This document shows, in pieces, positions 49,834-64,000 of a stretch of 64,000 nt of DNA. The DNA lies in the NCBI GenBank assembly GCA_034530875.2, contig JAVRCJ020000012.1, forward strand, positions 32,001 through 96,000, given 5' to 3'. Every line of letters starts with the position of its first letter. Positions within the stretch are counted from its first letter, which is position 1. The position numbers and the translations under genes were made by a program. The notes below the pieces were generated by a model, which did no database searches, was not told the origin of the DNA, and saw only the letters and a program-made list of their open reading frames with translations. Source of the DNA: Nostoc sp. DedSLP01. GTDB taxonomy: Bacteria > Cyanobacteriota > Cyanobacteriia > Cyanobacteriales > Nostocaceae.

Positions 49834-51834
49834 ATGTTAAACATTGCTGAAACTCTATTTAGACGCAAAATTATCAGAACTATTGGCTTACCAATTTTAT
49901 TATTGTTGTCATTGTCAGGAATTTCAATTTGGCAAATCTATCGCCTGCTTTCGGTGATGAGTTGGGTAGAGCATACCGACCAAGTGATTGCTCAAGCTTA
50001 TTTGACTCAAAAATTATTACTAGATTTGGAAACTGGAGTCCGTGGTTATCAACTTACAGGAAATTGGGAATTTCTTCAGCCTTATCGACAATCTAGCTCT
50101 CAAATTAATACTGCTTTTGATAAACTAGCCAATTTAGTTGTAGATAATCCTATACAAACTCAACGTTTAAAGGTAATTCGATTCCACGAGACAAATTGGA
50201 ATAATTTAATTTCCCAAGCCCTCGCCCGTAAAGAACGTGGGGAAGTAGAACCCATCGGAGGGTTTAAAATTCGCAAACGCATTATGGACGAAATGCGAAC
50301 CGAAATTGCTAAATTGATCGATACTGAAGAGCAACTACGCACTCAGCGTACTCAAGCAGTGCAAGCAACAACAATGCAAGTTATTGCCATCAGTATCATT
50401 TTAGCAATAGTATTTGGTATTTTTTTAGCTTACTTTATTAGCCGACAAGTTTTTCAAGTATCTCAAACTTATCAAAGTGCATTGATAACCGCACAACAGG
50501 AAGCAGAAAATGCCCAACAGCAAGCACAACAGGCTCAACGTGCTGCTCAACGACTTGCTGCTTTGCATAATATCGATCGCGCAATTTTAAGAAGTGAATC
50601 CATTGAATCTCTTATTAGTAATGCTCTAACTGAAATGCGTCAAATTTTACCTTACCAGCAAGCATTTGTAGCTGTGTTTGATTTTGAAACATCAACCAGC
50701 AAAATTATCGCTGGTAGCATTAATAACGGAGAATTACAACCGCCGATTGGCACTCAAATGTCATTCACTGAGTTTGCGACTAACACAACTGAGTTAGAAA
50801 ACATTCGTTATACACCCGATCTGGCAATAGCACAATCTTATCCGCCGATTCTGGCACAACTGCATTCTCAAGGAATGCGCTGTAGTCTTGCTATCCCTAT
50901 GTTTGCCGAAGAAACGCTATTTGGAGAACTTAACTTATCTACAACTGTTGCTGATGCTTTTAATCAGGAAGCCCACAATATTGCTTTTGAAGTTACGGCT
51001 CAGTTAGCGATCGCTATTCAACAATCTCTGCTACGCGAACAACTCCAAAGTTACGCCAATGAATTAGAAGAGCGTGTTGTCGAACGCACTGCACAACTGC
51101 AAGAAACAAACCAAGAGTTAGAAGCTTTTACTTATACTATATCGCACGATTTACGCGCACCATTACGTACTATGCAAGGCTTTGCTCAAGCATTAGAAGA
51201 AGACTACACAGACAAATTCGACTCAGTTGGGCAACAATACATTCAATTTATTACAGAGGGTGCAATCCAAATGGACACCCTCATTGCCGATCTTTTGGCA
51301 TACAGTCGTCTCAGTCGCGCCCAAATTCAAATGCAAAAAGTTGATTTAACTAGTGTTGTTGAAGAAGCTTTAAAACAACTAACTGCGCAACTACAGGAAC
51401 AGCAAGCTCAAGTCACAGTCAAAAAACCTTTACCCTTGGTAATGGCTCACCGTCCTACTCTCGTCCAGGTACTAATCAATTTACTCAACAATGCAATTAA
51501 ATTTGTGCGGTCTGGAATACAGCCAAAAATCCAAATCTATGCCCAGGAGCACCAGAATTCGATACAATTATCGATCGTAGACAACGGCATCGGCATTGCG
51601 CCACAACATCAAGAGCGCATATTTCGTGTCTTTGAACGACTGCATGGCGTTGAAATCTATCCAGGTACTGGTATTGGTTTAGCCATCGTCCGCAAAGGAC
51701 TAGAACGAATGAACGGTCGAGCCGGAGTAGAATCGCAACTAGGTGCTGGTAGTCGCTTTTGGATTGCTTTGCCAAAAGCCGTTCTTCATAGTAACGATAG
51801 TGATGACGCAAGTACTCCGGATTTTGATAATTGA
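49834..51834 (+). CDS. CHASE3-GAF histidine kinase
   Basis: WVEHT...DLETGVRGY (CHASE3), GAF, SHDLRAPLR, GTGIGLAIV. Confidence 0.9.
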   Translation: MLNIAETLFRRKIIRTIGLPILLLLSLSGISIWQIYRLLSVMSWVEHTDQVIAQAYLTQKLLLDLETGVRGYQLTGNWEFLQPYRQSSSQINTAFDKLANLVVDNPIQTQRLKVIRFHETNWNNLISQALARKERGEVEPIGGFKIRKRIMDEMRTEIAKLIDTEEQLRTQRTQAVQATTMQVIAISIILAIVFGIFLAYFISRQVFQVSQTYQSALITAQQEAENAQQQAQQAQRAAQRLAALHNIDRAILRSESIESLISNALTEMRQILPYQQAFVAVFDFETSTSKIIAGSINNGELQPPIGTQMSFTEFATNTTELENIRYTPDLAIAQSYPPILAQLHSQGMRCSLAIPMFAEETLFGELNLSTTVADAFNQEAHNIAFEVTAQLAIAIQQSLLREQLQSYANELEERVVERTAQLQETNQELEAFTYTISHDLRAPLRTMQGFAQALEEDYTDKFDSVGQQYIQFITEGAIQMDTLIADLLAYSRLSRAQIQMQKVDLTSVVEEALKQLTAQLQEQQAQVTVKKPLPLVMAHRPTLVQVLINLLNNAIKFVRSGIQPKIQIYAQEHQNSIQLSIVDNGIGIAPQHQERIFRVFERLHGVEIYPGTGIGLAIVRKGLERMNGRAGVESQLGAGSRFWIALPKAVLHSNDSDDASTPDFDN

Positions 51835-53344
51835 TGATAACCCAGGCGATCGCGCTTTAGTTATCCGAGAACTAAGGCGAGAATTTCCGCAACTTCAAGC
51901 TCAAGAAATTCGCGAAGCTGCTAGCTTTGCTAGAGCAGTAGTAGCAGATGAATTCGATTTAGTTATTACCGATTATCAACTTGGCTGGAGTACTGGACTA
52001 GAAGTTTTACATACCATTAAGCAGCAGTATCCCAACTGTCCAGTGATTATGTTCACTAACACGGGTAGCGAAGAAATTGCTGTAGAGGCAATGAAATCTG
52101 GGTTAGATGATTATGTCCTTAAATTACCCAACCGCTACATTCGCGTAGCCACTGCTGTGCGATTTGCACTAGAACGAAGACAAATCAAACAACGAGCTAC
52201 CTTACTCGAAATTCGTCTCCAAGGATTACTTAATCAATTAAAATTAGGTATATTTCGTACTTATCCAAATGGCAATTTTATTGAGTCTAACCCAGCATTT
52301 CTAGAATTATTGGGACTTGATTCATTATCACAAGCTTCAACAACAAATCTATTAAATATCCCTGCATACTACTCAAGACTCCAACAACTGCCGCCACCCC
52401 AACACCAAGAAGAAGAGATTCAATTACAACGAGCAGATGGAAGGCTCATTTGGCTAGAATTAAGCATCGCTCTCAATACAGTTGAGGAACAACAAGTACT
52501 AGATGGCTTAATAGAAGATATTACGTTACGCAAACAGGCTGAAATTGAAGTTCAGCAACTCAATCTCACTTTAGAAGAGCGAGTCACGGAGCGTACTGCT
52601 GAATTAGAAATAGCAAATCGAGATTTAGCACAAACAAATCAGCTTTTAGCGATGGCTAATCAAGATTTAGAAGCATTTACTTATTCAATTTCCCACGATT
52701 TGCGAGAACCACTACGAGCTATTCAAGGATTTGGTTCCATCCTCCTAGAGAACCAAAATACTCAATCCGATTTACAGAACCAACAAAATTATTTGCAACG
52801 CATTATTGCAAGCGCACAGCAAGCAGACAGGCTTGTTCAAGATTTATTGGAATACAGTCACCTCAGCCGTACTGAAGTACCATTACGAGCTATTAACTTA
52901 TCTTTATTGATGAGACAAATACTCAAACAGCTAGAACTAGAATTAACACAGCGACAGGCAAGAGTGCAAATTGAAGAACCTTTAGCTGAAGTGATGGGAA
53001 ATCCTACAATTTTAATTCAAGTAATTAGCAATTTGTTAACAAATGCGATTAAATTTGTTGCTCAAGGAGTCCAACCTGAGTTACGAATATGGACACAGAA
53101 GCATAATAAATTCATTCGCTTATGGGTACAAGACAACGGCATTGGTATAGAGGAAAGATATCAAAAACGCATTTTCAATGTTTTTGAGCGTCTACACAGC
53201 TATGAAACTTATCCTGGCAGCGGTATTGGCTTAGCAATTGTCCGCAAAGGAGTCGAACGTATGGGTGGGGAGGTTGGTGTAGAATCGCAACTTGGGCAGG
53301 GAAGCCGATTTTGGATAGATTTACCTGTAGTTAATGATTTGTAA
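51803..53344 (+). CDS. REC-PAS-histidine kinase
   Basis: Start at MTQVLRILIIDD, overlapping the previous gene; SHDLREPLR. Confidence 0.9.
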   Translation: MTQVLRILIIDDNPGDRALVIRELRREFPQLQAQEIREAASFARAVVADEFDLVITDYQLGWSTGLEVLHTIKQQYPNCPVIMFTNTGSEEIAVEAMKSGLDDYVLKLPNRYIRVATAVRFALERRQIKQRATLLEIRLQGLLNQLKLGIFRTYPNGNFIESNPAFLELLGLDSLSQASTTNLLNIPAYYSRLQQLPPPQHQEEEIQLQRADGRLIWLELSIALNTVEEQQVLDGLIEDITLRKQAEIEVQQLNLTLEERVTERTAELEIANRDLAQTNQLLAMANQDLEAFTYSISHDLREPLRAIQGFGSILLENQNTQSDLQNQQNYLQRIIASAQQADRLVQDLLEYSHLSRTEVPLRAINLSLLMRQILKQLELELTQRQARVQIEEPLAEVMGNPTILIQVISNLLTNAIKFVAQGVQPELRIWTQKHNKFIRLWVQDNGIGIEERYQKRIFNVFERLHSYETYPGSGIGLAIVRKGVERMGGEVGVESQLGQGSRFWIDLPVVNDL

Positions 53345-53473
53345 GCAATAAAGCTTTAAAATTACTGTTTTTCGTTTTGCCTTTCCCGTTTACAGCAATT
53401 TCCAGGTAAATAGACCACGTTGTAGGAGAGCACAGCTGTACTGCCTACCGAAAATTGTGGTTCAAAGGTTTCA

Positions 53474-53587
53474 CAATACTTGTCGGTTAAGGGGAAAAGG
53501 GGGAAAGAAAAAACCTTTAACCTTTACCCTTTAACCTTTTCCCTAAACCCAATGCCGAGTTAAAAATGCAAAACCCGAGCAGTATTA
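53474..53587. mobile_element. 114-bp MITE with a perfect 10-bp target duplication
   Basis: CAATACTTGTCGGTT...AACCCGAGCAGTATTA flanked by AAAGGTTTCA at 53464-53473 and 53588-53597. Confidence 0.7.
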
Positions 53588-53705
53588 AAAGGTTTCAAGC
53601 TTTAGTGCGTAAGTTCTGTAAAGATTTGATGACTAAATAGCTAGAGACTATTGTGCTTGTAGAGGATAATCACAAAGATATGTTTGCGGCAAAAACAAAA
53701 ATTTT

Positions 53706-54149
53706 ATGAGTAAAGAGCAAGATACTATTTTGCTTGTAGAAGATAATCACAAAGATGTCCTTCTAATGCAACGAGCGCTGCGCAAGGCTAACATTTTAAA
53801 CCCACTTCAGGTTGTAAATGATGGCGATACTGCGGTGTTGTATCTGTCTGGAGAGGAACAATATAGCGATCGCACACGTTATCCTTTGCCTGTACTCATC
53901 CTACTAGATCTGAAACTACCCCGCAAATCTGGAATTGAGGTTTTGATGTGGTTACGCCAGCAACCAAAACTCAAGCGCTTACCAGTCGTAGTTCTTACCT
54001 CATCTAAGGAAGATACAGATATTAATGATGTCTACGACATAGGTGTAAACGCTTACATAGTTAAGCCAGTTATTTTTAACGATTTAGTAGAAATTGTTAT
54101 TACCCTGAATCTCCACTGGATTATTTTTAACGAAAAACCACAAATTTAA
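53706..54149 (+). CDS. Rcp1-type single-domain response regulator
   Basis: LLVED, LLDLKLPR, VVLTSS, GVNAYIVKP. Confidence 0.9.
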   Translation: MSKEQDTILLVEDNHKDVLLMQRALRKANILNPLQVVNDGDTAVLYLSGEEQYSDRTRYPLPVLILLDLKLPRKSGIEVLMWLRQQPKLKRLPVVVLTSSKEDTDINDVYDIGVNAYIVKPVIFNDLVEIVITLNLHWIIFNEKPQI

Positions 54150-57248: not shown

Positions 57249-58097
57249 CTAACCAAGGGTCATCAAAAATTTGCGGACAGATTGCTCAAACTCAGTAGGA
57301 GTTTCAAGGTGAGGAGAATGTCCTGCATTAAATGTTTCAACTTGAGCATTTGGAAATTTGTTAATTGCAGGTAAGCACCGCCGGAGTTGAACAAAGGGAT
57401 CGCGTAATGCCCAAGTAAAAAGTACGGGACACGAAATACTCGAAATCAGTTCTCTCAGGTCTGAGGTTGGTTCGGCAAAACTTTGCCATGCCTGAACTAA
57501 ATAAGGTGCCATTTCCCAAGAAGATGCTAATATTTTCTTTCTTTGACTGCGAGCAGCTTGCTTGGGAAGTATCACTCGATAAAAATCAGCAATAGCTTTA
57601 GGATACCACCAAGCTTTTGCCATTCCTCCTGAAAAAATTCGTACCATTAATTTGATAAATACTTGTGCCGAACTATCCATTGGATCGAGTCCACCAGGAT
57701 TTGCTAAAATTAGACCCAGCACGCGTTCCGGGTGGATATAAGCATATTTGATTGCCGTAGCTCCACCAATAGAATTTCCAATAATAACTACTTTATCTAA
57801 CCTCAATTTATCTAGGAATAGTGCCAGTAATTCAGAATATCTACTTGCACTAACAGGTTGCATATCATTGTCTGAATTCCCATGACCCGGAAAATCAATA
57901 GCAATAACTCGGTATTGGTTGCAAAGGTTTTCTCTTAAATACAAATAGTCACTTGCTCCATGTCCAATTGCATGAAGGCAAATGATAGGTAAGCCGATAC
58001 CATCATCATTATAAGCTAGATTTATTCCGTCTACTTCAAGCGTTTTCCACGGTTCAGTTGCCCCTAATGCTGCCCTTAGTCGAGTGTTATTTCCCAT
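57249..58097 (-). CDS. Alpha/beta hydrolase, last gene of the biosynthetic operon
   Basis: HAIGHG, DFPGHG, GNSIGG, GHSPHLE. Confidence 0.88.
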   Translation of the reverse strand: MGNNTRLRAALGATEPWKTLEVDGINLAYNDDGIGLPIICLHAIGHGASDYLYLRENLCNQYRVIAIDFPGHGNSDNDMQPVSASRYSELLALFLDKLRLDKVVIIGNSIGGATAIKYAYIHPERVLGLILANPGGLDPMDSSAQVFIKLMVRIFSGGMAKAWWYPKAIADFYRVILPKQAARSQRKKILASSWEMAPYLVQAWQSFAEPTSDLRELISSISCPVLFTWALRDPFVQLRRCLPAINKFPNAQVETFNAGHSPHLETPTEFEQSVRKFLMTLG

Positions 58098-58121
58098 TGG
58101 CTTATACAAATTATTTTAGTA

Positions 58122-59282
58122 CTAGAAAATATCAGCAGGATCGGCTTCTTGTAACTTTTGTACTGCGAAGGCTCCGGCGATAAAGCACATTAAAATTGTC
58201 AGACACAAGACGAATACAGCACGAACAAATTCCATTTCTGTTGGCAGCCGGACAATGCGAACAACTAAATCATACAATAATACAGAAAAAGCAAATCCTG
58301 GAATATAACCTAAAACTGATAAAAATAATGATTCTTGAAAAACTACTTTTAAAAGATATTTATGACTATAACCAATAGCTTTCAGAGTTGCATACTCAGC
58401 TAAATGGTCGGAGACTTCACTATAGAGAACTTGATAGACAATAACTGAACCCACAATGAATCCCATTACTGTCCCTATAGTGAATATAGAACCAATGGGT
58501 GAACCTTGTCGCCAGTAATCTTTTTCCCGAGTCATATAACTCTCAAGGGTGAGTATTTTTACACCATTGGGAAGCTTAGCTGTTAAATTTTTAAGTACTT
58601 TTTGAATATTAGCATTAGGCTTGAGTTTAACTAAACCTACGCTCACCTTTTCCAAGGGTCTTTGAAGTAAACGTGAAAAATTCAAATCGCTAGTTATTAA
58701 AATTCCATCAGCAGAAAAAATCGAACCTCCTAAGCTGAATAAACCGCCAATTTTGATTTTGCGATCGTTTACTTCAGTTGCGATATTTTTTCCTTGTTTA
58801 AATTCGGTAGCAATGGGGCCAAAAACAGGCTTAGATAATCGGTCAAAAAGAACTACATCATCATATTTAAGTTTATTTAGATTCTGATTAACTTCAGGCA
58901 AATTAAAACATGGTTTTTCCGGATTACAGCCAAAAATTAATATTTGACGATTGCGCGGCTCTACAGGATTTTTCCAGTGGCCAAAACCCACATATAGAGG
59001 ATATGCTGTTTCTATACCATCAACCTCTAAACTTTTAGTTAAGTAACGCTTGGTAAAAGTCCGATACAATCCTACATCATATAAATTTTCAGCTCTGGGG
59101 TCGATCAAAATCAAGTCTGCACGCATATTCTGGTGTATATCTACAGCAGTTTTATATAAAGCGCCTTGGAAACCTAATTGCATAAACATTAAAAGGGTAG
59201 CAAAAGCAATTCCAGCCAAAGCTACTATAAACCGAGCCTTATTATGCGTTAATTGTAACCAGGATACGGGTACTTTTTGCAT
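58122..59282 (-). CDS. DevC-type ABC exporter permease
   Basis: SWLQL...FMQLGF, YQVLYSEV...EYATLKAIGY, ADPADIF. Confidence 0.9.
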   Translation of the reverse strand: MQKVPVSWLQLTHNKARFIVALAGIAFATLLMFMQLGFQGALYKTAVDIHQNMRADLILIDPRAENLYDVGLYRTFTKRYLTKSLEVDGIETAYPLYVGFGHWKNPVEPRNRQILIFGCNPEKPCFNLPEVNQNLNKLKYDDVVLFDRLSKPVFGPIATEFKQGKNIATEVNDRKIKIGGLFSLGGSIFSADGILITSDLNFSRLLQRPLEKVSVGLVKLKPNANIQKVLKNLTAKLPNGVKILTLESYMTREKDYWRQGSPIGSIFTIGTVMGFIVGSVIVYQVLYSEVSDHLAEYATLKAIGYSHKYLLKVVFQESLFLSVLGYIPGFAFSVLLYDLVVRIVRLPTEMEFVRAVFVLCLTILMCFIAGAFAVQKLQEADPADIF

Positions 59283-59388
59283 AATGAATTTGTATTTACC
59301 CATGAGAGCCAAATTTCATGTATTAACGACTTTGACGCTTGAAAAATTTTGATTCTTCCAATTAAGCTAGAAGAAATTTACGAAGAAA

Positions 59389-60618
59389 TTAAATATGAAT
59401 TGCTACATTCACTTTCAAGTTGGTTAAGCTTCTTACTTGTTGGCTACTCGCGGAGTCCAGCCTGATTTTGACTTCTACTACTCTAGCGTCTACAGCCACC
59501 ACTGGATCGTCGTTCAAAACATCTTTTTTACCAATTTGCCAACCAATTTGGTCTACATGACCTTGTAGTTTGTTGGTAAAAGTTTCACTAGTAATTACAG
59601 CTTTTTGACCGTTATTTATCTTAGTAATATCACTTTCATAAACTTCTGCGACTACATACATCTGGTCTGTTTGACCGATATCGGCAATTCCTTGGGTATC
59701 AATATTTTCTCCAGCGTGAGTATAGATTTTTAAAATTCGCCCAGCTATTGGCGATCGCACATAAGCTAGCTTGAGGTCGGCTTGAGCTTGTTTTACAGAG
59801 GCGATCGCACTTTCTAAGTCTGCTTGAGCCTCGTTGATATTTACCGGACGAATTTCAGCAATACGATTTAAAGTTGCTCTTGCTTCATTAATCTGTTCTT
59901 GGAGAGTTTTGACAGTACCATTAAAAGTAGCTTGTGCCTCATTTATCTGCTCTTGAATAGTTTCCATTGTCAAACGTTTACTATCTAAAAGCGAAATGGC
60001 GATCGCACCATCTTTATAGAGCTTCTCATAACGCGAATACTCTATTTGAGCGTTACTTAATTGAGTTGAAAGTTTAGCAATATTTGCTTTTTGAGCAATG
60101 CTTTCCTCGCTTAACTGTGCCTTTAATCGAGCAATCACCGCTTGTTGAGCAGATATTTCTCCTACTTGAGCGCCAGCTTTAACTTTGTCAAGACGCGCTT
60201 GAGCAACTTTGACTTGTGTTTGAGCCTTTTCTAAAGCAGCTTGACGAGTATCAAGGATATCCAGAATTGCAACTACCTGTCCGGGCCGAACTTGCTCTCC
60301 TTCCTTAACAAGTAGCTTCGCAATTCGCTTTTGCGTCTCTAGCATGGTTGGTGAAGACAGCTTAATAACTTCTCCTAGCGGTTCTAAGCGTCCATCCGCA
60401 GCAACAATATTGTCAGTAGAATTACCTCCTGGAGTGGCGGCGATGTCTGCATTATTCTGCTGAATAGCATGAGAACGAAAATACACAATAGCGTACACAG
60501 AAGCTCCACCAAAAGCTAAAGCTGTCACAATTGCCAAAATAATGACTCTCCAACTTTGGAGACCTGCATTCTTTAAAAACTGCTGATTGGTATTAGACGC
60601 TGGATAATCTTCTTGCAT
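59389..60618 (-). CDS. DevB-type membrane fusion protein (HlyD family)
   Basis: N-terminal TM, GRLEPLGEV, coiled coils, VVAEVYESDI, DARVVEVKI. Confidence 0.9.
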   Translation of the reverse strand: MQEDYPASNTNQQFLKNAGLQSWRVIILAIVTALAFGGASVYAIVYFRSHAIQQNNADIAATPGGNSTDNIVAADGRLEPLGEVIKLSSPTMLETQKRIAKLLVKEGEQVRPGQVVAILDILDTRQAALEKAQTQVKVAQARLDKVKAGAQVGEISAQQAVIARLKAQLSEESIAQKANIAKLSTQLSNAQIEYSRYEKLYKDGAIAISLLDSKRLTMETIQEQINEAQATFNGTVKTLQEQINEARATLNRIAEIRPVNINEAQADLESAIASVKQAQADLKLAYVRSPIAGRILKIYTHAGENIDTQGIADIGQTDQMYVVAEVYESDITKINNGQKAVITSETFTNKLQGHVDQIGWQIGKKDVLNDDPVVAVDARVVEVKIRLDSASSQQVRSLTNLKVNVAIHI

Positions 60619-60625
60619 AAAAAGT

Positions 60626-60859
60626 TTAATTTTTAACGCGATTTACAAATAACTGAGTCAAGTCTCCTACAGTTTTAATATCTTGCAAATCTTCTTGTAA
60701 AAAACATACACGATACTCTTCTTGCAGTTCAATAATCATTTCAATTAAAACGAAAGATTCAGCAATAACATCGGTTAGTAAAGCTTCATCTTGCAGTTTA
60801 GAAATGGGTATTTTAGTAAAATCGGATATTTTTTCTTTTACAGTACTTTGAACTAACAT
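60626..60859 (-). CDS. Acyl/peptidyl carrier protein 2
   Basis: 77 aa, acidic, AESFVLIEMIIELQEE (candidate Ppant Ser), IKTVGDL; GAAGGAG RBS. Confidence 0.8.
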   Translation of the reverse strand: MLVQSTVKEKISDFTKIPISKLQDEALLTDVIAESFVLIEMIIELQEEYRVCFLQEDLQDIKTVGDLTQLFVNRVKN

Positions 60860-61012
60860 AGTATTTTCTCCTTCGTCATTTTTTGTTACTGTACTTCTAC
60901 ACCAAAAACAAGCAAATATTTTTAATAAAGCATAGAATTAATGGTTCCTTTGAATCCCCCACTAATTAATTCTGACTTCTGAATTCTGAATTCTGAGTTC
61001 TTCTTCAATGAT

Positions 61013-61573
61013 TTATCTTTTGATTAGATATTTGACTCTTTCCTCATGTTCGTTCATAGTTTGACGATAAACTTCTCGATCCGACTCTCCAAAACGTTTG
61101 AGAGTTGCTTGAATGTAATCTCTACCATAATCAGATTCCATATCCTTAAGAGCTTTTCCAACCCAAGTAGTATGCCACTTTTCATCTTTCATGATTTTCT
61201 CAAGAGTCTCTTTCACTTCTGGCTGAAGATTGAGAATCTGACTGTGAAGAGCATATTGCGTAATAACCCGTTTTTCAAAGACTTGAGTGATTGCTAGAAC
61301 CTCCATCAAATTCACAGGCATACCAGCTGCTGCTATATATTGATCTTGATAAGCATCAGTAAGTTTGAGCGCTTGAGCACCTAATTTTTCAATACATGCT
61401 GTCCAGTACCAAGCATGAAGACTTTCATCAGAAAAATGATTAGTCATATCACGCTGGATAGGGCCTGGTTTCATTGATTTGGCCAATCTGCCGAAAAAAA
61501 GTGCCCCACTGATTTCAGAAGTACGATAAAAGCTTAGAAGCCACAATTCATTTTCACTAAGTTTCTCAGACAT
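61013..61573 (-). CDS. Ferritin-like diiron protein
   Basis: E(ISG)...DESLH...E(KRV)...DEKWH carboxylate/His pattern; AGGAG RBS. Confidence 0.8.
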   Translation of the reverse strand: MSEKLSENELWLLSFYRTSEISGALFFGRLAKSMKPGPIQRDMTNHFSDESLHAWYWTACIEKLGAQALKLTDAYQDQYIAAAGMPVNLMEVLAITQVFEKRVITQYALHSQILNLQPEVKETLEKIMKDEKWHTTWVGKALKDMESDYGRDYIQATLKRFGESDREVYRQTMNEHEERVKYLIKR

Positions 61574-61615
61574 GAGAATACTCCTAACTTTTGGGTTAAT
61601 TCAATTTATCAAGAT

Positions 61616-61776
61616 AGAATTCAGGAGTCAGGAGTCAGAATTCAGTATGAATTAGAGTCCGACTGGCGTCTGAATAATTGGGTTTAAGACCCAACAAAAT
61701 CGTAGATTTGGTAGTCTTGAATTAGTCGCGGTTCAGAATCACTAACTGATTGATTCTGACTCCTGAATTCTGAATT
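61616..61776. repeat. STRR-ended dispersed repeat, an inverted homologue of about 54361-54503
   Basis: Shared CAGAATTCAGTATGAATT.GAGTCCG...GCGTCTGAATAA.TGGGTTTAAGACCC...TAGATTTGGT. Confidence 0.75.
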
Positions 61777-61795
61777 ATTTTTCAATAAAAACACT

Positions 61796-62890
61796 TTATA
61801 CTTGTTTAGCCCATTTTTGTTTCAAAAGGTATTGGCAAGTATTTTCAATTAAAGTTTGGGGATTTTCAGCTTGATAGTTATCAAAAGCTGAAACTAGTTT
61901 TTGATTATTGATTTCTTTGTCAATGAACAGTTGCTTAGAAAAAGGAGATACACTAGAAACTGCTTCATTAACAATATTTCCGCCAAAGCCTTTTACAGCA
62001 TCTACAAGAAAATTAAAAGATTCTGGATCGGCATAAAGTGGCTTCAGAACTCGCCGCACTTTAAATTCTGGCGTTTGAGTAAAAGTTGTAAATGCAATAT
62101 CTATGATATCGCCCAAGCATGGTGATTCTGCTTTTGTATGGGCAATATGATAAATTTCTTGATTGCAAGAGCGACTCATCAACTTGAAAATTGCATCAGT
62201 GACAAAATCTCCTGTGACGAAATATAGTGGCGTTTCTGGTTTACCTGGAATTAAAGAAAGCAGACCATAATAAAGTAGCTTTAATGTATTATGGAAAGCA
62301 TTTTGTTGAGTCACATATCCTTGTATGTTATCCGCAATGACTGTTGCTACTCGAAATATGCTCCAAGGAAGATGAGAAAATTGGTTAATTAGTAAATTTT
62401 CAGATTCCCATTTTGACCACTCATAATAATTGGCAAAGCCATCTCGGTCGTCTAATGCAATTTCTGCAATTAAACCTGATTTTATCCCAGATGCATAAAC
62501 CGTACTTAATAAGCCAAATCCTTCTAAAGAGTGGCAGGTATTAGCAAAATTGAGCAGCTTTTCTGTTCCCTCAATATTAACTTGCCGAGCAGTTTCTCGG
62601 TCGACATTAAAGCGAGTTACTGAGGCAGAATGAACGATTAGTTTAATTTCTCCTGGGTCAATTAAATTAAATGGTTGTGCTTGTCTTAAATCACCCCAGG
62701 AATAGCTAACGCGTTCAGAGTAATTGTCTAGATAAAGATTGAGTTTTTCTACCTTGTTTTGAAACTCATGTTCGTCATTTGCCCTTACCCAAAGTAGTAT
62801 AGGTTCCTGTGTTACTTGCAAATATTTTCTGGCTATGCGAGAACCAATATAGCCATCGCCACCTGTAATTAAAATTTGTTTTTTAGACAT
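61796..62890 (-). CDS. Extended SDR of the thioester reductase / fatty acyl reductase (NAD_binding_4) type
   Basis: TGGDGYIG, HSAS, NIEGT, STVY, YEWSKWESE. Confidence 0.85.
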   Translation of the reverse strand: MSKKQILITGGDGYIGSRIARKYLQVTQEPILLWVRANDEHEFQNKVEKLNLYLDNYSERVSYSWGDLRQAQPFNLIDPGEIKLIVHSASVTRFNVDRETARQVNIEGTEKLLNFANTCHSLEGFGLLSTVYASGIKSGLIAEIALDDRDGFANYYEWSKWESENLLINQFSHLPWSIFRVATVIADNIQGYVTQQNAFHNTLKLLYYGLLSLIPGKPETPLYFVTGDFVTDAIFKLMSRSCNQEIYHIAHTKAESPCLGDIIDIAFTTFTQTPEFKVRRVLKPLYADPESFNFLVDAVKGFGGNIVNEAVSSVSPFSKQLFIDKEINNQKLVSAFDNYQAENPQTLIENTCQYLLKQKWAKQV

Positions 62891-63773
62891 TTGCTACCTT
62901 CTCTAACTGTAAATGCGGCCAATTAGTTTCATCAGTTCCAAATTGTGTTAAAAAAGCAAATATCCATCGTTCGATTCCGAAGGCTACACAGCCAGAGAAA
63001 GCATCTTGACCGTCTCGCTGAATTTGAAATGTTTCTCCAAAATAATTTCGATGGAAATTGACTGAGCCAATAGCCAGACTATTTTGAAATACCATTTCTG
63101 TTTTTACTGGTGCTAGCTTTTGCGCTAAATATTTAGGATTTTGCAAAGGATTAAAAAATGGATCTGTTGCTTCATCCCAGTCAATTGGCAGGTTAATTGT
63201 AGTAAATAAATGTTCTAATTTTTGTCGATAGTTATCCAAAAATACTTTCACTTCATCTGCTGTGCCAATACATACAATTTCTCGCATAGAAAAATTCCAT
63301 TGGCGTTCGAGGGGTCGATAATATGACTCTCGTCGAAAACAATTTCCTCTAGTTGTCAAGTACTTTGGTCTATTGAGATTCTGTCCTTGAAATTGAATGT
63401 AAAAGTGATAGCAGGCTGCTGGTGTGAGAACATCCCGAATTGGCCCTGGTGCTGTCAATTGGACTTCTCCGGCTGCTGAAATAGGTTGTCCCTCAGCAAA
63501 AGTCTTTAAATTCTTTTCCTCTGGATTTAGGAAAACTGGAAATGTGACTAAATGAGGAAAAGAACGAAAATATTCTAGGCGTTCTAGTTCGCGTGCAGAA
63601 ATAAAAGTTGGAAACAGATGTTCTTGAGCAGTACATTCTCTAGCCAAGCTGATAAAAAACTGGTCGAGTTTGTGATAAAGCTTGAGCAAATTACCGCTAA
63701 ATGCTGATTGACCATTGGGAAACCAACGATAATCTGCTAGGTTTTCAAAGTTAATTTTAGTGTTATTTTCCAT
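62883..63773 (-). CDS. Seryl-tRNA-synthetase-like amino acid:carrier protein ligase (class II catalytic core only)
   Basis: YFRSFPH, PAACYHFY, motif 2 CFRRE...FSMREIVCIG, SVNFHRNYFG, motif 3 SGCVAFGIERW; 296 aa with no tRNA-binding domain. Confidence 0.85.
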   Translation of the reverse strand: MENNTKINFENLADYRWFPNGQSAFSGNLLKLYHKLDQFFISLARECTAQEHLFPTFISARELERLEYFRSFPHLVTFPVFLNPEEKNLKTFAEGQPISAAGEVQLTAPGPIRDVLTPAACYHFYIQFQGQNLNRPKYLTTRGNCFRRESYYRPLERQWNFSMREIVCIGTADEVKVFLDNYRQKLEHLFTTINLPIDWDEATDPFFNPLQNPKYLAQKLAPVKTEMVFQNSLAIGSVNFHRNYFGETFQIQRDGQDAFSGCVAFGIERWIFAFLTQFGTDETNWPHLQLEKVANV

Positions 63774-64000
63774 TGGTTACCTCTTGAAAAAAATTGTGGT
63801 GTATGGCGTTAATATCTCGAAAAACCTTGTGTTTGATATTAGAGAAGTTAATGGGGCGATCGCTTAATTGTTCGATAAACAAAAGTAGTTCCATTACTTG
63901 CAGTGAAGAAATAATTCTACGTTCAATAATGGGTGTATCATCCTTGAGTTCATCGCTTTGAATCTTGCCATTTGTATTCACTATCCATTCATGCAATGCC
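63763..64000 (-). CDS. Carrier protein 1, 5'-truncated by the window end
   Basis: Frame open to the edge (...ALHEWIV); DDTPIIERRIISSLQVMELLLFIE resembles the Ppant-Ser helix; stop overlaps the ligase start. Confidence 0.72.
   Translation of the reverse strand, partial: ALHEWIVNTNGKIQSDELKDDTPIIERRIISSLQVMELLLFIEQLSDRPINFSNIKHKVFRDINAIHHNFFQEVTNGK

Follow-up and report, generated by a model that had tools for sequence, protein, structure and literature searches.

A predicted glycine:carrier-protein ligase in a compact, widespread operon of Nostoc sp. DedSLP01

Gene content and organization of the operon

The window analysed here, i.e., the whole stretch of 64,000 nucleotides from Nostoc sp. 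DedSLP01 (C12:32001-96000, C12 being contig JAVRCJ020000012.1), contains close to its end the gene for a protein of 296 amino acids (aa), which is most similar to ligases that join an amino acid to a carrier protein (aa:CP ligases) and overlaps the gene of a small carrier protein (CP). Both belong to an operon that runs past the window end, such that C12 coordinates are used for genes outside. In order of transcription, its first half comprises an acyl carrier protein (ACP), a fatty acyl-AMP ligase (FAAL), an acyl-CoA-ligase-like protein, an ICMT-like protein, a beta-ketoacyl synthase III (KAS III), an AurF-like protein, CP and the ligase, followed by a short-chain dehydrogenase/reductase (SDR), a small di-iron protein, a second carrier (ACP2), DevB, DevC and a hydrolase. 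The genes are as follows, ligase and CP being given first:

62883..63773, (-): aa:CP ligase, predicted glycine-specific, 296 aa; ATG start, predicted zinc triad C121/E165/C262, A264
63763..64000, cut by the window end (full gene C12:95763-96026), (-): CP, predicted cognate carrier, 87 aa, invariant Ser41
C12:102161-102655, (-): ACP (ACP1); upstream, outside the window
C12:100136-101932, (-): FAAL; upstream, outside the window
C12:98417-100105, (-): acyl-CoA-ligase-like protein; upstream, outside the window
C12:97840-98412, (-): ICMT-like protein; upstream, outside the window
C12:96887-97837, (-): KAS III; upstream, outside the window
C12:96023-96883, (-): AurF-family di-iron oxygenase, PF11583; upstream, outside the window
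61796..62890, (-): thioester-reductase-like extended SDR, 364 aa; best Pfam match NAD_binding_4
61013..61573, (-): small ferritin-like di-iron protein, 186 aa; ligands E20/E50/H53/E100/E131/H134, no seventh His
60626..60859, (-): ACP2, second carrier, 77 aa, probable acyl carrier; invariant Ser35
59389..60618, (-): DevB-family membrane fusion protein of an ABC exporter; TIGR02971 over cut-off
58122..59312, (-): DevC-family ABC permease; TIGR01185 over cut-off
57249..58109, (-): alpha/beta hydrolase, accessory; together with DevBC also in L003, L063, L083 and G390

The likely ATG start of CP lies 26 bases beyond the window end. A first-pass annotation of the window had described the ligase as translationally coupled to a carrier protein; an overlap of its reading frame with that of the upstream carrier is confirmed and amounts to 11 nt: the ligase ATG (63773) is situated that far inside the CP open reading frame (ORF), whose stop occupies 63765-63763, and AGAGG is found upstream of it. 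Furthermore, the last 8 nt of the ligase gene are shared with the start of the reductase gene, and the AurF and CP genes overlap by 4 nt. A scan for promoters and terminators stayed at chance level (42 sites vs. 48.8 expected and 14 vs. 11.7, respectively).

For a comparison of the operon, seven loci from genomes were used together with the 80 best out of 394 matches in metagenomes, whereby a gene was counted only in loci with enough flank and a tblastn match anywhere in the locus was scored as presence. Gene order is near-fixed across the fetched loci, and CP (78/78), AurF (48/50), KAS (35/37), ICMT (29/32), some AMP-binding enzyme (25/26), SDR (53/54), the small di-iron protein (33/34) and ACP2 (29/33) are present in nearly all of them. 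Judged by title or source name, the hosts include Stigonema, Gammaproteobacteria, Eisenbacteria, Acidobacteria, Nitrospiraceae and Opitutaceae. In its own phylum the distribution is patchy, with seven of the 401 searched genomes (this one included) and none of the eight others of the same genus possessing the operon.

The ligase and its predicted carrier and substrate

The stand-alone class II core claimed in the first-pass annotation is recovered, with motif 1 (P55) in addition to motifs 2 (R147) and 3 (R269) and a match to the Pfam model tRNA-synt_2b above its cut-off (E 2.7e-7, 31.3 bits; cut-off 29.3). The best sequence match in the PDB is Bll0957 (E 7e-33), titled there as a glycine:carrier-protein ligase, compared with E 2e-10 for type-2 (methanogenic) seryl-tRNA synthetase (SerRS). 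The AlphaFold model (mean pLDDT 83) leads to the same protein: the six highest-ranking folds all belong to Bll0957 (Z 24.9-25.2, rmsd 2.8-3.3, 270-279 aligned residues), vs. Z 22.4-23.7 for the type-2 SerRS folds (2CIM, 3W3S). The Cys, Glu and Cys pointed out earlier in PAACY (C121), MRE (E165) and SGCVAFG (C262) have their counterparts in the corresponding motifs of aligned Bll0957 and are invariant both in an alignment of 31 rows and in 87/87 rows of a larger one (the ligase plus 86 near-full-length relatives, forming 70 clusters at 90% identity and not all independent); the conservation of C121 is partly pre-selected, as the pattern used in the locus scan took in this residue. The Cys-Glu-Cys zinc ligands of aa:CP ligases are present in the 296-aa protein, and zinc binding is predicted for it. 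Its carrier-recognition segment corresponds to approximately residues 203-226.

The N-terminal tRNA-binding domain is wholly absent, as previously noted, because residue 1 of the model superposes on residue 178 of the M. barkeri SerRS or residue 189 of that of M. kandleri; compared with methanogenic SerRS, what is missing is, however, a mixed alpha/beta domain and not a coiled coil. Besides lacking this domain, the ligase stays far under the cut-off of the type-2 SerRS model TIGR00415 (62 bits; cut-off 490). Of the four PF00587 matches in the host genome (99.8% complete), one is a canonical SerRS that exceeds the cut-off of TIGR00414. The earlier proposal that a protein rather than tRNA is the probable acceptor is strengthened by the likeness to Bll0957 in sequence and fold, the separate SerRS, the synteny with the carrier, and carrier-ligase fusions.

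Concerning the carrier, Ser41 is invariant in 49/49 aligned CP relatives, five of which weakly match PP-binding, and the CP profile matches a Streptomyces protein annotated as ACP (E 2e-13). Among the 42 ligase homologues of at least 330 aa tested, two are natural fusions with CP at the N-terminus (P0067 and P0126, the former 63% identical to the ligase and 52% to CP) and three further ones contain weaker CP-like stretches, while the ACP2 profile is matched in none of the 42. Since fusions with CP exist and none of the homologues match ACP2, CP is regarded as the cognate carrier, and the ligase very probably acts on it; the two carriers had been treated as equivalent candidates before, which is no longer appropriate given these fusions and the occurrence of CP in every countable locus.

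A264 of the ligase, which allowing for a 20-residue tag equals Ala281 of Bll0957, aligns with the Ala in GCVAFG of that enzyme and with Gly in both type-2 SerRS. The exchange A281G reportedly opens Bll0957 to Ala and Ser. Ala is found at this position in 119 of the 120 close homologues among the matches listed (the remaining one has Gly), in 87/87 aligned rows, and in 103 of 150 more distant representatives; Gly is present in four fetched ligases that are classical or linked to an acyl-CoA dehydrogenase in Priestia megaterium. Because Ala264 is shared with the glycine-specific Bll0957, whereas serine enzymes have Gly, glycine is predicted as the substrate and likely to be so. The substrate, previously held to be unreadable from the sequence, can be predicted to this extent.

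The wider ligase family comprises 1447 clusters at E 1e-10 or better. In a tree of 33 rows, all 18 AurF-linked ligases fall into one branch (100/98), separate from a root group of four ligases (from three classical loci and P. megaterium; 100/100), and a quick tree of 73 rows rooted on SerRS and threonyl-tRNA synthetase agrees as to the AurF-linked branch (97 SH-aLRT). Both were calculated without Bll0957, type-2 SerRS, the split copy of Agrobacterium vitis (L098) and the copy of Priestia koreensis (L103). The protein is supported as a predicted zinc-dependent aa:CP ligase that would replace the adenylation domain of a nonribosomal peptide synthetase (NRPS), i.e., as an enzyme of a known kind in a separate clade. 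Two further observations concern its homologues: on the A. vitis plasmid, the homologue is split into two reading frames (L098 5001-5785), and a second group of approximately 380-410 aa carries an unassigned N-terminal extension of approximately 100 aa (P0182, P0188, P0189, P0197, L099 and L100), two of its members being situated in biosynthetic-looking clusters of Streptomyces and Bacillus (L099 5683-6876 and L100 5644-6828).

Proposed pathway and alternative explanations

How the pathway is read depends on the AurF, KAS III, ICMT-like and acyl-ligase genes, all of which lie just beyond the window and were not seen in the first-pass annotation. The AurF-like protein matches PF11583 (E 7e-37), and its residues E79, E109, H112, H183, E187 and H190 are invariant in 44/44 rows, E157 in 42/44. 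H183 is located four residues before the glutamate of the last ExxH, and a seventh His at such a position is characteristic of N-oxygenases (PMC12154687). An AurF-type enzyme with the seventh His thus adjoins a predicted glycine carrier, the arrangement of glycine nitronate/oxime cassettes. For akazaoxime and enteromycin, it is described that carrier-bound glycine is N-oxidised and that O-methylation takes place (PMC9967187); the same has been proposed for althiomycin (PMC3445576). Neither the AurF-like protein nor the small di-iron protein gave a significant match when searched by sequence against the PDB.

The trio of AurF, CP and ligase also occurs without this KAS or SDR, namely in Tistrella, where a PF03060 (nitronate-monooxygenase-family) gene and an S-adenosylmethionine (SAM)-dependent methyltransferase gene follow; it is further found in Streptomyces NBC_00335 beside ketosynthase genes and in L079 beside an MBOAT gene. 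We consider it likely that the AurF-type enzyme N-oxygenates in this pathway. In L079 (594-14426), the trio is also accompanied by another, divergent ligase (31% identity), by genes of ACP type and by an ORF resembling an NRPS. Upstream of AurF in Streptomyces NBC_00335, a protein of 363 aa (L095 6712-7803) has no Pfam or NCBIfam match; by eye, it bears a resemblance to amide-forming enzymes of the transglutaminase-like kind.

In KAS III, C128 and D277 are accompanied by Q241 at the His position and H272 at the Asn position of FabH, and the GHxxxxD motif is held in common with DpsC and ChlB3; its best profile match is FabH (2ebd), the assignment to the ChlB3/DpsC type being made by motifs and not by a tree. 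Such enzymes are expected to transfer acyl groups without decarboxylating malonyl. The model of the small di-iron protein is a ferritin-like bundle (pLDDT 91). Its top folds are the uncharacterised 3ez0 (Z 18.0), tied with aldehyde-deformylating oxygenases (ADOs), which account for four of the six top matches (best 5ux2; Z 17.9, rmsd 2.7, 176 aligned), followed by a PaaC-like protein (Z 16.7), all at identities of 11-16%. The Pfam scan gave no ADO match, though the ligands of two ExxH motifs are present; the position of the seventh His is taken by Ile in 32/32 rows, and an ESM Atlas search gave only automatically named ferritin-like clusters. G055 and G136 (99% and 87% complete, respectively) possess a six-gene form (AurF-CP-ligase-ICMT-KAS-SDR), and neither genome gave a match for the small di-iron gene, G390 serving as positive control. 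As it was not found with this form and moves together with ACP2 in L015, the pair looks like a separable acyl-chain module.

The following route is proposed. By strong homology, the ligase would form Gly-AMP and move glycine to the phosphopantetheine on Ser41 of CP (step 1); the amine on the carrier would then be oxidised by the AurF-type enzyme, giving a nitronate, an oxime or a hydroxylamine (step 2). A fatty acid would be loaded on ACP2 by the acyl ligase or FAAL and perhaps modified by the small di-iron protein (step 3), whereupon the ChlB3/DpsC-type KAS III would couple this acyl group, with no decarboxylation, to the N-oxidised glycine (step 4); the bond may be an N-, O- or C-acyl bond. 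The SDR would free the thioester as an aldehyde or alcohol, and the ICMT-like membrane enzyme would O-methylate the acidic N-O oxygen, the lipid being exported (step 5). A carrier-loading ligase and its predicted carrier are borne out by homology and synteny. The best explanation overall is a route without NRPS whose exported product would be a lipid with a head of N-oxidised glycine, and we hold it to be moderately probable, while the exact order of steps and the product class are put forward tentatively, with confidence somewhat short of even. One variant, which is quite unlikely, treats a carrier-bound nitroacetyl group as a malonyl mimic: KAS III, which has no decarboxylating His-Asn pair, would C-acylate the acidic C2 of nitroacetyl with a fatty acid, and the action of the reductase and the membrane methylase would afterwards yield a 2-nitro or O-methyl-nitronate long-chain alcohol. 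If true, this would be a nitro analogue of sphingoid-base assembly independent of pyridoxal phosphate and an undescribed class of exported lipids from bacteria of several phyla.

Several observations weigh against the interpretation of an N-oxidised glycine lipid or parts of it. The ligase scores 141.4 bits with NF005479, the NCBIfam equivalog of classical aa:CP ligases, i.e., under the cut-off of 357, where the Azospirillum ligase used as control reaches 520.9 bits, and it is only approximately 30% identical to characterised aa:CP ligases. Ala281 is reported to be a determinant of the preference for glycine, yet among the 150 distant relatives, 24 have Gly and 23 no motif match at this position. 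Concerning the carrier, CP itself matched no model in the Pfam scan, and its profile comparison with ACP2 is weak (probability 14%). The AurF profile matches solved AurF weakly (E 0.026), and the Streptomyces clavuligerus ligase falls inside the AurF-linked branch despite no AurF being found in its 16.7-kb locus. The name of the PF03060 gene in Tistrella holds at family level only, its sole NCBIfam match being the FabK model, under cut-off. Finally, the ICMT-like protein stays under curated cut-offs, has DUF1295 and steroid-reductase-like clusters among its look-alikes, and could be a reductase instead.

The alternative that survives best, albeit an unlikely one, is that glycine is loaded and its nitrogen is not oxidised. 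KAS III would then form an N-acyl-glycyl carrier, from which the SDR would release an N-acylethanolamine-type lipid to be methylated by ICMT, both di-iron enzymes working on the acyl chain. The acyl-transfer type of the KAS motif, the thioester reductase in 53/54 loci and the AurF-less member of the AurF-linked clade fit this explanation, as does the fact that ferritin-like di-iron enzymes also carry out C-H oxygenation and desaturation (PMC12154687); however, AurF travels with CP and the ligase and not with ACP2, even in loci without this KAS or SDR, and its seventh His, of the N-oxygenase type, is kept in 44/44 rows, whereas the small di-iron protein has Ile at this position.

It is improbable that alanine, serine or several small amino acids are loaded instead of glycine. 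Ala264 is as in Bll0957, Gly being present in the serine enzymes and the four acyl-CoA-dehydrogenase-linked ligases, and the N-oxygenase precedents use glycine; nevertheless, members of the family charge Gly, Ala or Ser according to PMC9437257, the identity to the glycine enzyme is low, and Gly replaces the Ala in one of the 120 close homologues.

Similarly improbable is an explanation compatible with glycine loading and N-oxidation (steps 1 and 2), in which the SDR and the small di-iron protein would resemble the pair of acyl-ACP reductase and ADO: the aldehyde would be deformylated and C1 of glycine lost, leaving a one-carbon N-oxidised head. To the ADO-rich fold list and the presence of the di-iron gene in 33/34 loci, which fit such a pair, are opposed the tie of the ADO folds with 3ez0, the nearby PaaC-like protein, the low identities, the movement of the di-iron gene with ACP2 in L015, and its not being found in G055, which keeps AurF-CP-ligase-ICMT-KAS-SDR.

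That the protein is a tRNA-charging SerRS paralogue (VlmL-like or a resistance copy, possibly with a separate tRNA-binding subunit) is extremely improbable: to type-2 SerRS homology, a match to NF002120 (E 2e-23, far under cut-off) and the label seryl-tRNA synthetase carried by homologues in some source databases stand opposed the absent N-terminal domain, the canonical SerRS in the genome, the carrier fusions, and the set of scanned operon genes, none of which encodes an acceptor of MprF/VlmA type.

Some candidates were rejected. A link to biotin, suggested by a BioB-like gene (by eye) after ACP2 at L005 13480-14481, is limited to one of 87 loci. An Ole-type olefin or beta-lactone route was dismissed since KAS lacks the His/Asn of OleA and the hydrolase is accessory, and a likeness to nocuolin since NocA/NocB are homologues of MtnB/MtnD, not ICMT-like, and NocG keeps His/Asn (PMC9486936).

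With regard to the surroundings, a phosphopantetheinyl transferase gene is absent from this operon copy, one being located on contig C21 of the host genome; in 24 of the 44 loci holding both the SDR and the di-iron gene, it is situated between them. Heptamer-like repeats (TTCTGAA/TTCTGAC type), direct and inverted, flank the small di-iron gene (60935-61009 and 61605-61789), and one set sits where many other loci carry the transferase gene. The exporters recurring beside the operon are of DevBC, FtsX/LolA-like and MMPL types. At 57249-60618 of the window, DevB and DevC are present, but the hydrolase is not followed by an ORF for an ABC ATPase, which the Stigonema locus L003 does contain; the ATPase may be supplied from elsewhere in the genome. 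Upstream of CP, extra genes that encode, among others, a GNAT-like protein and one of the radical SAM/SPASM type are present in L032 (6334-9711), where the insertion sits between AurF and CP, and in L039 (96-3273), and a MarR-family regulator precedes the operon in five loci (e.g., L020 437-1054). Downstream of the operon (49834-54149), the plus strand carries a response regulator along with a pair of sensor kinase-like ORFs, as recognized by eye.

Comparison with known systems

The enzyme type is known, and the operon pathway is compact, widespread and without known product. A description of the operon was not found in the literature searched, supplements and most subscription papers being outside that coverage. 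Taken alone, the ligase would be no surprise to a specialist, whereas the operon predicts specific downstream chemistry. In the operon, this separate ligase clade is part of a compact front end; the three small soluble proteins that form it could be reconstituted in vitro. If the proposed pathway is true, the aa:CP ligases, described in PMC5370406 and PMC9437257 and of still unknown role according to the latter, would gain a defined job, and the operon would hint at a hitherto unknown N-oxidised lipid of wide occurrence among environmental bacteria.

The ligase is most similar to Bll0957 and the aa:CP ligases (3MEY, 3MF1, 4H2S, 4H2W; NF005479), with which it shares the bare type-2 SerRS core and the zinc triad and, with Bll0957, Ala at the specificity position and a carrier gene in the same operon. 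It differs by an identity of only about 30%, and it has another sequence in the segment by which the engineered 4H2W departs from 3MEY. Classical aa:CP loci, whose neighbourhood is discussed in PMC2922099, show the order ACP, acyl-CoA dehydrogenase, ligase, DUF1839 and GH2, whereas no acyl-CoA dehydrogenase, DUF1839 or GH2 neighbours were found among the operon genes scanned here. With type-2 SerRS (2CIM, 3W3S), the fold of the catalytic core and the zinc triad motifs are shared; approximately 180 N-terminal residues are missing from the ligase, and SerRS has Gly in place of Ala264.

KAS III resembles the acyl-transferring ChlB3, DpsC and CerJ, the GHxxxxD motif being shared with DpsC and ChlB3. 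Like NocG, which adjoins the acyl ligase NocH, it adjoins an acyl ligase, but NocG and OleA keep His/Asn (H275/N304 and H285/N315, respectively; PMC9486936), whereas Gln241/His272 are found here.

Carrier-bound glycine and a di-iron oxygenase, as predicted here, and an O-methyltransferase, for which the ICMT-like protein is a candidate here, are components of the glycine nitronate/oxime cassettes of enteromycin carboxamide, akazaoxime/A-76356 and althiomycin (Alb2/Alb3). Despite this general similarity, in akazaoxime and althiomycin glycine is loaded by an NRPS adenylation domain and extended by NRPS/polyketide synthase modules (PMC9967187, PMC3445576), whereas the present operon would use a synthetase-derived ligase, KAS III, a thioester reductase and a membrane ICMT-like enzyme, and contains no NRPS.

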